A stretch of DNA of 64,000 bases from Botryllus schlosseri (Eukaryota): NCBI GenBank assembly GCA_051294905.1, contig CM119372.1, positions 14,262,001 to 14,326,000 on the forward strand, read 5' to 3'. The stretch's first letter is position 1; each line of letters opens with the position of its first letter. Made by a program: the position numbers and the translations under genes. The notes under the pieces are model-generated. The model saw nothing but the letters and a program-made list of their open reading frames with translations, had not been told where the DNA came from and did not search any database. Below, piece after piece: positions 2,039 to 33,569 of the stretch.

Positions 2039-5000
2039 GTGGCGATATTTCAGCAATGACCTCGTTCCACAACGCAGAGTTTTTGGCATTGTAAGACGTC
2101 GTTGTTCTTAACGTAACTCTCCTCTGAATCCCATTCAAGTTCATATAATTGTTATTCTCACGGTAAGGCAGCCACCGTCGAAAGCCCTTTGAATTCGGGT
2201 CCCTGCACAAGGAAAATGCCATCGTGAAAATGGATGTTGTTACATCAGAGATCACCAACTTCAAGGTATATGTTACACACTACAGAATGGGATTGGCTAC
2301 TGGTGAGAGCTCTACCCAGAAGAAAATTAAGGATCTTTTGCATATGTAGGCATTGTATGGTCTCACTAAAGGCAAAACAGAGCTAATCTTCTTCAAGGCC
2401 TGATTCAATAGAAGCATATACTTGGATGGATATCCAGTAGCAATATGCCAATCACATTTCTTGAAGAGAAAATTAAATGCTTGTTACCATGGTGCCGCTG
2501 AGTCATGGTGCCGCTGAGTCTCGAATATAAATAGTACACAAAATCCAAAGATCTCATACCCAGATCGAGCGAAGTTGCTCCAATATGCCATTAGCTGCCG
2601 GCTAAATTCTCTGTCATCGTCTGTGAATTTATCTGGTGATGTCATAGGCAAACCGAAAACATATGAAATCTCATCGCCATGCACACCTCCCAGCCAGGAG
2701 GGAGTTTGTGAACCGTCAAGATGTGAGGAAGGTTTGCTTAGAACGTATTGGTACATTGATCCATTCTCAGACCTGAAATCATAAAATACTAACTTGCAGT
2801 TTGTTGTTAGAGTTAAAGGTGGGTAATCACTAATCACACAGCAGCATAATGGGTCATGGCAGCAATGATTATAATTTTAACATTTTAATACCACAATACT
2901 GTTATACAATCAAAAGATAGGTAAGTGTAGCAACAACTTGGATCATTCTTTGAAATCTGACCAGGGATATATAGAGCTCTATATAGTTCTATATATCCCA
3001 GAATCTGACACCCACTTGGGGCTTGGCAATGTTAAGAGGAGACATGCGCTCTGAACGAAAAGTGAAAGAATATATCATAAATGGACTAGCGACAAAATGA
3101 AGTGGGATGTGACCAATGTTCCCTTCAATTTTTGTGGAGTCTGCGCGCACTCACCAACTCCCTGCGCGGTCCCTTGGACAACAGTGCGTAACGACTGAAA
3201 AAATAGGGTGATCACTTCGGATTTTCTGTGCGCAGCGACCGTGTCAAAACTGCGCAATTGCGCACATGCGCAGCTGAGAGGAAACATTGGATGTGACTTA
3301 ATTAGCAGTTGTCAAAATAATCACTGATACCGCAACCGAATATGAGGAAGCAGAGCATAATAATTTCACCAAAGCAGTACTTTCCAAGGAAAGTGTGACG
3401 ACACAAACAAAAATGACACCACAATCTCAAAGTAAAAAAATCGGCAAGATCTCTCTTACCTATAAATGGTTTTCTACTTCACAGAATCCCATGCACAGGA
3501 TTTTAATTCAGTAAAAAATGTCCTTTTCTTGTACAATTGAGTCGTTTTGGGAAGCATATGTATAAACAATTGGCACATGCTGTATTACCATTTCGCAACG
3601 CTCGTTTATCACACAGTTATACTTGACTCATACCGGCGGTGTCTGATTGCATACCATTTTCTCATGAGCTTATGCATTATGATCACCTTTCGATAATTTT
3701 GCTCGCAAACAAAAATGCAACATTATAATTGGTCACCTCATTTTTACATCCAAGTCCCGAGCTGACGCAGCTTGAAACATCATATCGGTGTAATACAACA
3801 CGACCGATTCATTGCTGACACTTTCATCATCCATATTTTGCCATGGCGTGTAGGAATGTACCAACAAATCACCGGTCCGACCGTGCATACTGTTCCTGTT
3901 GTCACCCGTGTAGCGATATGTCTGACGAATTGCCTCGTCCAGAGAAATATCTCGGGCGAGTGAATTCTAGATGGGACAAATACATTCAGCAGGGCGCTTG
4001 ATCCAGCGCATTGCAAATATTCATCAGTGTTATTGCAGGTATTGCAGTAGATTTTTAAAACTCAGACGTGGATCTCGCTCTACAAAGTTTGAGCCCGCAG
4101 GTAAGCTTCAACAATTTTTCTTCATCTTCAGTAAAGTTTCACGGACCCCTTAGAATCAGACTTGGGCAACTAGATAATTCTAGTTTTCTAATCAGAATAA
4201 TTAGAGCAAAATGCCTTCAATCTAATTCCAATCTACCGCGTAATTTGTGAAATGCTTGTATGTTTCTGGTCTTGCCGAAAAAGCCACAAGAGAACTGTAT
4301 AGCGCGAAATGTGGTGTACAGACATTTGTCATTCCCGTGCTGAAGAGAGTGAACTGTGAAATGATATGAAGTAAACTTAGTTTTTGTTGTGTATCTTTTC
4401 AATTTGTATTCTAATTCAATCTCAGAGTTTTTGCGAATTCAGTAATTGTCATTCTAATATAACTTGGGAATAAACTGTGCAAGTGTGCATCTATAATTCT
4501 AATTTTAATTTAATCTGGAAACTTCTGCTTACAAATAGTTATCGGACCACCAAGGGGATCATAAGCGCTAGTTTAAGAACCCCTGGGCAAGTTAGAATGT
4601 AAGACTGTCCTTAATTTGTAATCCACATCGACACCACCCACAAATAAAAGCCTACGTTGACAACCTCCGCATGTCGAAAACGCGACTCACTTCCAAGTCA
4701 ACGTAAAATTCATGACTCGCGGTCCCAGAGATGAAATCAAACGCCGCGGCAGCCATAAGACTATCAACGTCGGTTTCGGGGATCAACTCCCCGTCTTTCC
4801 TCAGTCGCCACGCTCCCCAGTTATTGTACGTTTCGTCATATGAGGGTCCGGTAGGGGCGTGGTATGGAAACGCCGATAGCAGATCTTCAGCCGACATTGA
4901 TTTCAGACAAGTAGCCAACTCGCTGCCGTTAGGAGAACATCCTGTAGCCGACGCGATTGTTTCATCGGAGTGACTGTCCGTGCAGTCGTGTTCGTAAAAC

Positions 5001-33569: not shown

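Follow-up and report, generated by a model that had tools for sequence, protein, structure and literature searches.

A Botryllus schlosseri gene with four tandem cholinesterase-like domains and a candidate membrane anchor

The minus strand of a 64-kb window of the genome of the tunicate Botryllus schlosseri (contig C2, positions 14262001-14326000, of a 495.5-Mb assembly in 219 contigs; G+C of the window ~40%) carries a long series of exons related to the carboxylesterase family (COesterase, Pfam PF00135). We read them as one real, expressed gene of 35 exons, 34 of which lie inside the window, that encodes four tandem cholinesterase-like (ChE-like) domains in a type I membrane protein of ~2315 residues belonging to an uncharacterised family, and we put the probability of this reading at about 0.85. 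The part of the gene inside the window (2039..33569, minus strand) extends from an ATG at 33569 to the splice donor that follows 2039 and comprises 34 coding exons. Positions below are those of the window unless a contig is named, and all features of the gene are on the minus strand.

Results

One open frame through four cholinesterase-like domains

In a Pfam scan of the region from 33.6k to 2.0k, 21 of 32 minus-strand open reading frame (ORF) pieces matched PF00135 with E-values from 4.7e-47 to 0.012, and along 33.5k-2.5k these matches traversed profile positions ~2 to 472 four times in order. The remaining 11, for which no match was obtained, correspond to divergent middle and C-terminal exons. 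Pieces from all four domains exceeded the gathering score of the family (27 bits; for example 107, 141, 81, 161, and 98 bits), and a family hidden Markov model (HMM) built from 101 single-domain relatives recovered the same four passes, while on the spliced model our family HMM gave four envelopes of 305-382 bits each. A preliminary description of this DNA had proposed a single gene with one frame through four such domains and had anticipated four hits in a PF00135 scan; the four ordered passes agree with that proposal, as do the transcript contigs, the colinear ortholog, and the positional orthology of the domains described below.

The gene model was built by chaining the tblastn matches of the closest full-length relative, Styela clava LOC120344729 (P0277, 2343 aa). 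All frame-keeping GT/GC..AG pairs were enumerated at 29 junctions and scored by their alignment to P0277 plus a crude splice-site score; at each of the four junctions with visible RNA (9110/8108, 7904/7841, 7655/6432, and 6304/6233) the top-scored pair was the RNA joint. Three introns lying inside single tblastn matches were added. The first (19995..19918) was placed from the end of an RNA contig and frame logic, and the second (9334..9272) from an RNA joint. The third (13668..13727) is an in-frame intron of 60 nt without a stop codon, hidden inside an apparent long ORF exon (13961..13491), and was accepted on three grounds: its sequence reads GTGAGT...ACAG, a 3798-nt RNA contig (record 10 of set X3, see below) is 60 nt short between its listed pieces at this place, and the 20 residues of the would-be read-through are missing from all Styela D3 domains in the alignment. 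The resulting ortholog-guided model holds 34 exons and 2233 open codons without an internal stop inside the window, and it independently reproduces the 34 frame-consistent exons of the preliminary description. Its splice sites are GT-AG throughout, except for one GC-AG intron of 70 nt (6234..6303; ends CT..GC on the plus strand), whose joint 6233/6304 is present in spliced contigs of all three RNA contig sets, X1, X2, and X3.

The ATG at 33569 is the first one to follow an in-frame stop that lies 44 codons before it, and the N-terminus it opens is hydrophobic; the initial 20 residues (33510..33569) are predicted from hydropathy to be a signal peptide, with cleavage placed by eye after ...VQG. 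Domain 1 (D1, residues 1-558, 24247..33569) is encoded by exons 1-6 (33569-33175, 32948-32842, 32190-31589, 25152-24927, 24862-24700, and 24427-24247), and domain 2 (D2, residues 559-1131, 15061..24188) by exons 7-18 (24188-24022, 22639-22467, 22359-22201, 22136-22008, 20228-19996, 19917-19752, 17702-17586, 17500-17389, 16203-16074, 16017-15941, 15380-15249, and 15184-15061). Domain 3 (D3, residues 1132-1675, 7904..14210) occupies exons 19-27 (14210-14027, 13961-13728, 13667-13491, 12878-12722, 12464-12256, 11392-11217, 9462-9335, 9271-9110, and 8108-7904), and domain 4 (D4, residues 1676-2231, 2039..7841) exons 28-34 (7841-7655, 6432-6304, 6233-5872, 5074-4691, 3966-3737, 2772-2560, and 2202-2039). 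Pieces of RNA contigs agree with exon 4 in D1 (24927-25154) and exon 11 in D2 (19995-20229), and further pieces fall in D3 (13727-13960, 12721-12880, 12255-12463, 9334-9462, 9110-9270, and 7904-8108) and D4 (7655-7841, 6304-6432, and 5871-6233).

Three Styela proteins (P0277, P0271, and P0276) align with the window colinearly and exon by exon in tblastn, from residue 5 to ~2170. The 34-exon model and P0277 form a single BLASTP high-scoring segment pair (HSP) of 2250 columns with 50.8% identity and 2294 bits, the identities to the ortholog domains being 63% for D2 and 54% for D3. Pfam analysis of P0271 and P0122, an older and a newer model of Styela LOC120335102, returned four COesterase stretches in each and no other kind of domain.

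Joints between the domains and transcript evidence

All three inter-domain joints are introns of phase 0. The D1/D2 intron (24189..24246) is 58 nt long (GTGAGC...CATAG), and reading through it meets a stop after 8 codons; the D3/D4 intron (7842..7903) is 62 nt long (GTGAGG...TTCAG) and is spliced out in RNA contigs. Both agree with the introns given in the preliminary description, down to the peptides that it had quoted on either side. The D2/D3 intron (14211..15060) has 850 nt; three frame-keeping candidates for its joint (15074/14229, 15061/14210, and 15040/14204) score within 3 points, of which we prefer 15061/14210 for its splice consensus, and the phase compatibility of D2 with D3 claimed earlier is retained. 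The first exons of D2, D3, and D4 offer no usable Met with a signal peptide, which leaves the ATG at 33569 as the single start, again as described before. In a paralogue on contig C5 (see below) the inter-domain introns are likewise of phase 0, with 477 nt at D1/D2 and 234 nt at D2/D3. Each type of boundary is therefore represented by at least one case that is too short to hold the end of one gene and the start of another: 58 nt here for D1/D2, 234 nt in the paralogue for D2/D3, and 62 nt here, confirmed by RNA, for D3/D4.

The transcript data consisted of contig sets X1 and X3 from one study, contig set X2 from another, and a raw RNA run (X15), viewed over window positions 5800-25200 with 15 of 222 joints listed. 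Sets X1-X3 carried the label "RNA?" by guess, and we treated them as complementary DNA (cDNA) because their contigs are spliced at GT-AG introns. The joints 7841/7904, 6432/7655, and 6233/6304 are found in one contig each in X1, X2, and X3, the first of them, which the preliminary description had named as a check, with 187 nt on its shorter side. Record 7 of X2 (1243 nt) spans 5887..9462 and thus exons 25-30, and record 10 of X3 (3798 nt) spans 5871..13960 and beyond, from exon 20 in D3 to ~1.5 kb past exon 30. Because these two contigs run across both domains, D3 and D4 lie on one spliced RNA. We infer that the RNA is likewise continuous from D1 through D2 to D3.

Several intronic stretches (6447-7093, 11623-12269, 16152-16798, 18740-19386, and 20681-21974) reached a summed contig depth of up to 23,757 in X1, compared with 5-35 on exons, and yielded many odd joints and loose ends; we therefore take them to be high-copy interspersed repeats that are transcribed elsewhere. 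In the ~6% of raw run X15 covered, no reads lay on exons, and the 603 reads obtained (599 of them partly placed) all fell in repeat bins, a result that speaks neither for nor against the gene model. Intron pieces belonging to different domains in several cases match one another in more than one frame, and the stretch at 151-412 has at least 39 copies genome-wide at 73-83% identity.

A transmembrane exon downstream of the window

According to the preliminary description, the protein was secreted, counted ~2,230 residues, and ended at 2039. This end has to be revised. The unspliced frame does read ...SPRK with a stop at 2033-2031; the residues ..SPRK* are however encoded by C|GTAAGTAG, which is a consensus donor read through, and that donor (GTAAGT, 2031..2038) would open an intron of 3170 nt (intron 34). 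Exon 35, which was found in the 20 kb to the left of the window (contig C2, 14260868-14260615, minus strand, ~1.13-1.39 kb left of window base 1), encodes a juxtamembrane motif, a transmembrane (TM) helix, a tail, and a stop; it scored 54.3 bits (E 1.4e-16) with an HMM of the tails and E 8e-12 to 5e-10 in tblastn, and its best acceptor is in the exact phase demanded by the exon end at 2039. The 35-exon model is open over 2315 codons (2315 aa), has its hydropathy maximum at ~residues 2276-2295, and forms one BLASTP HSP with P0277 (residues 8-2315 against 5-2318, 49.9% identity, 2329 bits).

Hydropathy scans placed a C-terminal TM helix in seven of eight relatives (four Styela and three shark proteins) and none in the 34-exon window model. 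The tails of the Styela and shark proteins have in common a juxtamembrane motif, ..L-T/S-P-x-E..A-x-Y..F-S... The relative without a helix is P0271, the older model of Styela LOC120335102, which ends ...FPKDK, whereas the newer model P0122 continues to a stalk, a TM helix, and a tail; by analogy, the end of P0271 is probably the same donor read-through as the apparent stop at 2033-2031. The TM exon is thus present in the genome of B. schlosseri itself, and the 2038 donor would be what joins it to D4.

The end of X3 record 10 bears on this point as well. Some 1556 nt of this contig fall below 5871; in the spliced exon-35 model its end would fall 2 nt short of an ATTAAA and 32 nt short of an AATAAA, and in a model with an unspliced 3' untranslated region it would end ~72 nt beyond the only AATAAA. 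This arithmetic slightly favours the spliced model, and we give it little weight.

No tail exon was detected at window positions 1-2036. A 12-residue hydrophobic peptide with a stop behind it (1974-1939, minus strand) could be joined in frame to the 2038 donor by a 62-nt GT-AG intron, and it is weakly similar to the Styela TM helix over that helix's second half (tblastn E 0.1-0.2). We rejected it as a chance occurrence because the tail HMM misses it and because the real tail exon lies further downstream.

Relatives, domain phylogeny, and paralogues

With the large D3 exon as query, no near-identical protein was found among 1.84 billion cluster representatives (best identity at most 59%), and in another protein search the best identities were 39-45%. 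Many predicted proteins matched the D3 exon in several stretches, including Styela clava LOC120335102 and LOC120335093 (2241-2349 aa), a Lineus protein (2475 aa), a Macrostomum protein (3380 aa), and bivalve proteins. A length-matched search with P0271 added Styela LOC120335133, LOC120344729 (P0277), and LOC120330182, together with shark proteins of ~1680-1700 aa and oyster proteins of ~3200 aa. The search for orthologs with four COesterase domains that had been suggested at the outset was therefore successful in Styela clava. P0277 and its paralogues LOC120335102, LOC120335093, and LOC120335133 (2241-2351 aa) have a signal peptide and the same four domains in the same order as the window gene, with end-to-end identities of ~50% for P0277 and ~44-46% for the others. 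They are automatic models with no described function, and they do not bear out the earlier expectation that an annotation pipeline could easily split such a gene, as the NCBI Styela clava models keep the four domains together at several loci.

In a tree of 51 domains, every domain of the window gene clusters with its positional counterparts from Styela (SH-aLRT, an approximate likelihood ratio test, 99-100). D1 and D3 share a clade that also holds the first shark domain (SH-aLRT 99), and the second shark domain groups with tunicate D2 (SH-aLRT 97), which places the first two shark domains inside or next to the D1/D3 and D2 clades of the tunicates. Since each domain is orthologous to the Styela domain of the same position, the four-domain array is old and was fixed before the Botryllus and Styela lineages split. 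In the Lineus, Acanthaster, and oyster proteins, by contrast, domains group with others of their own protein and represent either recent duplications or possibly fused models.

The shark relatives (P0280, P0281, and P0283) come from Stegostoma tigrinum (LOC125448388, 1679 aa), Mustelus asterias, and Scyliorhinus torazame, and are predictions only. They have three COesterase domains as opposed to the four here, and otherwise resemble the window gene in their signal peptide, tandem arrangement, serine-less last domain (GYGAG), juxtamembrane motif (..LTPxE..A.Y..FS..), TM helix, and short tail, which ends T-K-L or T-K-F. Shark and Styela D1-D3 form one BLASTP HSP with 33% identity over 1730 columns. 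The window gene has all the traits of this unnamed tunicate and shark family, namely a signal peptide, at least three tandem COesterase domains, a last domain without the serine, the juxtamembrane motif ..L(T/S)PxE..A.Y..FS.., and a TM helix, and the shark proteins suggest that the family predates the tunicate-vertebrate split.

Four further homologs of the tail exon are present in the same genome: contig C5 carries three of them inside 40 kb, and contig C4 the fourth. The stretches around all four were compared (C5:4626001-4706000, L011-L018; C4:10755001-10795000, L019-L022). One C5 gene, the paralogue mentioned above, is colinear with P0271 residues 333-2237, its start lying at or beyond the edge of the stretch compared. 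The two other C5 copies have only a D1-like domain above the family tail exon and are possible single-domain, neuroligin-like members. The C4 region holds a gene colinear with Styela LOC120330182, and P0292 is colinear there.

Catalytic state of the four domains

The preliminary description spoke of four esterases, and here the domains part company. Twelve tunicate domains were aligned with six single-domain relatives, and the catalytic positions were taken from this alignment and not from a structure. The set is complete in D2 (YGGG at the oxyanion position, GESAG, Glu, His) and in D3 (HGGG, GNSAG, Asp as the acid, His), and because the oxyanion hole, the GxSxG serine, the acid, and the His are all kept, D2 and D3 are probably active carboxylic-ester hydrolases outside the cell. 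D4 keeps Glu and His; it has HGDD and a Gly/Ser-rich insert (6207-6133) at the oxyanion position and GHGSG in place of GxSxG (5907-5887). The Gly at the serine position and the Gly/Ser-rich insert are found in both Styela D4 domains too, so that the nucleophile serine and the oxyanion glycines are missing from D4 in all three proteins compared, and the last shark domain, with GYGAG, also has Gly for the serine. The membrane-proximal domain is therefore a conserved pseudo-esterase. By analogy with the esterase-dead domains of neuroligins and thyroglobulin, D4 is probably a binding or structural module.

D1 retains GESAG (32077..) and has HPTD at the oxyanion position, which is normally HGGG (33200-33180), Phe at the position aligned with the acid, and Ile in place of His (24827-24807). 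Both Styela D1 domains are intact (HGGG, His), and among the three tunicate proteins compared the alignment thus points to a loss of the His and the oxyanion glycines in B. schlosseri only. The description as four esterases would consequently stand for D2 and D3, with full catalytic sets, and falls for D4, without serine and oxyanion glycines, and for D1, without His and oxyanion glycines.

Evidence against the single-gene reading and alternative explanations

A number of observations weigh against the reading of one gene for a four-domain membrane protein. Among the 15 of 222 joints listed, none joins D1 to D2 or D2 to D3 in RNA, and no RNA joint between 2039 and exon 35 is in view. Unspliced material occurs in the runs, as X1 record 5 runs straight through intron 8 and X3 records 11 and 12 are intronic contigs of low depth, so that pre-mRNA or DNA must be present in them as well. 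Both the signal peptide and the TM helix are predictions from hydropathy, and the cytoplasmic tail is short and ends ...PLN, whereas the Styela and shark tails end in S/T-x-hydrophobic. The gene models from Styela are themselves automatic predictions, for which no transcript support was in view. The tree is a quick maximum-likelihood one with a midpoint root, in effect unrooted, with several flagged long branches, and in it the third shark domain does not group with tunicate D4. Finally, a stop 9 codons into the 850-nt D2/D3 intron, together with an AATAAA inside it, makes a shorter isoform possible.

This last point leads to the alternative that survives best, which we nevertheless consider improbable: two transcription units or isoforms, in which D1-D2 would end by intron retention and polyadenylation within the D2/D3 intron and D3-D4, with or without the TM exon, would be transcribed from an internal promoter. 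Read-through of the 15061 donor stops after 9 codons, with the AATAAA 228 nt into the intron, an ATG-started hydrophobic ORF of 55 codons begins at 14559 inside it, and the longest visible contig, X3 record 10, begins within exon 19 and falls short of D2. On the other hand, all five Styela proteins are continuous across D2/D3 with conserved flanks (..LPLxxCP.. and ..CPxxxLxRxTxSGC..), the C5 paralogue leaves only 234 nt of phase 0 at this boundary, exon 19 has no Met with a signal peptide, and the ORF at 14559 has no homology support.

The gene could also be a decaying copy on its way to a pseudogene, with transcripts that have no function. Its D1, with HPTD for HGGG and Ile for His where both Styela D1 domains are intact, and its tail, shorter than those of its relatives and without their C-terminal motif, would fit such a drift. 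We consider it less probable still, given that 2315 codons are open over 35 exons with intact splice sites, that spliced transcripts occur in two studies, and that D2 and D3 keep their catalytic residues at 63% and 54% identity to the ortholog domains. That the exons make up four (or three) separate tandem esterase genes, as in the CES clusters of insects or vertebrates, is very improbable: tandem COesterase gene arrays are common, and the near-identical domains in multi-domain proteins of other phyla (Lineus end branches of 0.003-0.04; Acanthaster D2 close to D3) may be fused models or recent duplications, but gaps of 58 and 62 nt could not accommodate the 3' end of one gene plus a promoter and signal exon for the next, splicing removes the D3/D4 gap in the RNA of three runs, which already contradicts the separateness of D3 and D4, D2, D3, and D4 lack a start codon or signal peptide, and the domains are old, divergent, and orthologous by position to those of Styela.

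Other features of the window

About 10 kb upstream of the four-domain gene lies a serpin gene with a frame of 374 codons (43315-44439, minus strand; PF00079, 288 bits), the closest relatives of which are transcript-derived proteins with 57-61% identity. An exon-sized ORF at 53779-54102 (minus strand) matches Methyltransf_8 (45.6 bits) and probably belongs to a gene for an RRP8-like methyltransferase. Intron 3 (6.4 kb) contains an ORF of 160 codons on the other strand (29834-30316, plus strand), which has no Pfam match and may be a fragment of a mobile element. Six ORFs, four in the introns of the gene and two from downstream parts of the window, gave nothing above threshold in Pfam, and Rfam gave no match in the window.

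Discussion

The reading of a single gene implies a product in which a signal peptide would precede four alpha/beta-hydrolase domains, with linkers of ~15-40 residues between them, and in which D4 would be followed by a short juxtamembrane segment, a TM helix, and a cytoplasmic tail of ~17 residues. Its signal peptide and TM helix predict a type I topology at the cell surface, all four domains facing outwards; D2 and D3 would hydrolyse carboxylic esters, and D4 would bind a ligand or act as a scaffold. Compared with this product, the Styela proteins have the same serine-replaced D4 with its Gly/Ser-rich insert, the same juxtamembrane motif, and a TM helix; they differ in a D1 that keeps HGGG and His, in a longer Ser/Thr/Pro stalk, and in a tail of ~40 aa that ends S-x-L, the stalk of the window protein being short and its tail ending ...PLN.

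ChE-like domains are textbook single-domain modules, found in AChE, BChE, carboxylesterases, neuroligins, and thyroglobulin, and cholinesterases and neuroligins dimerise through a helix bundle. The predicted topology resembles that of the neuroligins, which have type I orientation, a serine-less ChE-like ectodomain (compare D4), a stalk, one TM helix, and a short tail. Neuroligins, however, have one domain and no catalytic triad, whereas the window gene has four domains, two of them with the triad (three in Styela), and a tail ending ...PLN rather than a PDZ-binding end, and the neuroligin and thyroglobulin domains form a clade of their own in the 51-domain tree, separate from the window domains. 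Among solved structures, the Styela ortholog matches neuroligin-3 best (365 bits, with the strongest stretch in D3), neuroligin-4 and neuroligin-1 match D1, and D2 comes closest to bile-salt-activated lipase (cholesterol esterase) and AChE; to the true cholinesterases (AChE and BChE) the likeness observed is one of overall similarity. Bile-salt-activated lipase, AChE, BChE, and liver CES belong to the same Pfam family, and both the Ser-acid-His triad and the oxyanion hole are retained in D2 and D3; all matching solved chains are single-domain (522-737 aa), while the window protein is a covalent string of domains.

Thyroglobulin resembles the window protein in being a very large protein of the secretory pathway with an esterase-dead ChE-like domain, and thyroglobulins were among the length-matched hits (at most 260 bits, ~21% of the query covered). 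It differs in its build of type-1, -2, and -3 thyroglobulin (Tg) repeats plus one ChE-like domain; Pfam found no Tg type-1 repeat (PF00086) or other Tg repeat in the 32 ORF pieces, P0271, or P0122. The tandem domains of the window protein could pair within or between chains by way of a helix bundle, and the thyroglobulin ChE-like domain is described as dimerising through such a bundle in PMC13078365. A recent study (Nat Commun 2026, PMC12992692) presents the Styela thyroid-hormone precursor as a 630-kDa Tg1-rich protein without a ChE-like domain, distinct from the present family, and proposes that interactions with ChE-like-domain proteins be examined; among the proteins discussed in the supplement files searched, no esterase is named.

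The preliminary description had not recognised a characterised family in this gene, and phrase searches of the literature likewise retrieved no report of proteins in which carboxylesterase or ChE-like domains occur in tandem or in multiple copies. Johnson and Moore (Comp Biochem Physiol D 7:83, 2012), whom PMC12992692 cites, are said to have noted proteins with multiple carboxylesterase domains in the genomes of invertebrate deuterostomes; in that case, predictions of this kind would not in themselves be new. Members of the family are already in public databases as "uncharacterized protein" models. What appears to be undescribed is the conserved order of the four domains, the pattern of live and dead sites, the membrane anchor, and the shark relatives.

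A broader interpretation, which we hold tentatively and at somewhat under even odds, is that these genes represent an old undescribed chordate family with three to four ChE-like domains on one TM anchor, in which competent domains would sit atop a neuroligin-like, esterase-dead one. Such a family would predate the tunicate-vertebrate split and would have been kept in ascidians, with several paralogues per genome, and in cartilaginous fishes, and lost in bony vertebrates. As a longer shot, it might supply in trans the dimerising or escort role of the ChE-like domain of thyroglobulin, an idea that we raise because the ascidian Tg-like hormone precursor is reported to have no ChE-like domain (PMC12992692).

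For genome annotation, the stop after D4 is probably the result of reading through a splice donor, and the same error appears to truncate one public Styela model. Four linked ChE-like domains with mixed live and dead sites and a membrane anchor would be a different use of the fold, suggesting a hybrid between an enzyme and an adhesion or receptor molecule, and a natural covalent version of the cholinesterase dimers and tetramers that are otherwise non-covalent. As the family appears to link tunicates and sharks, it bears on the genes of the vertebrate ancestor and on their later losses.

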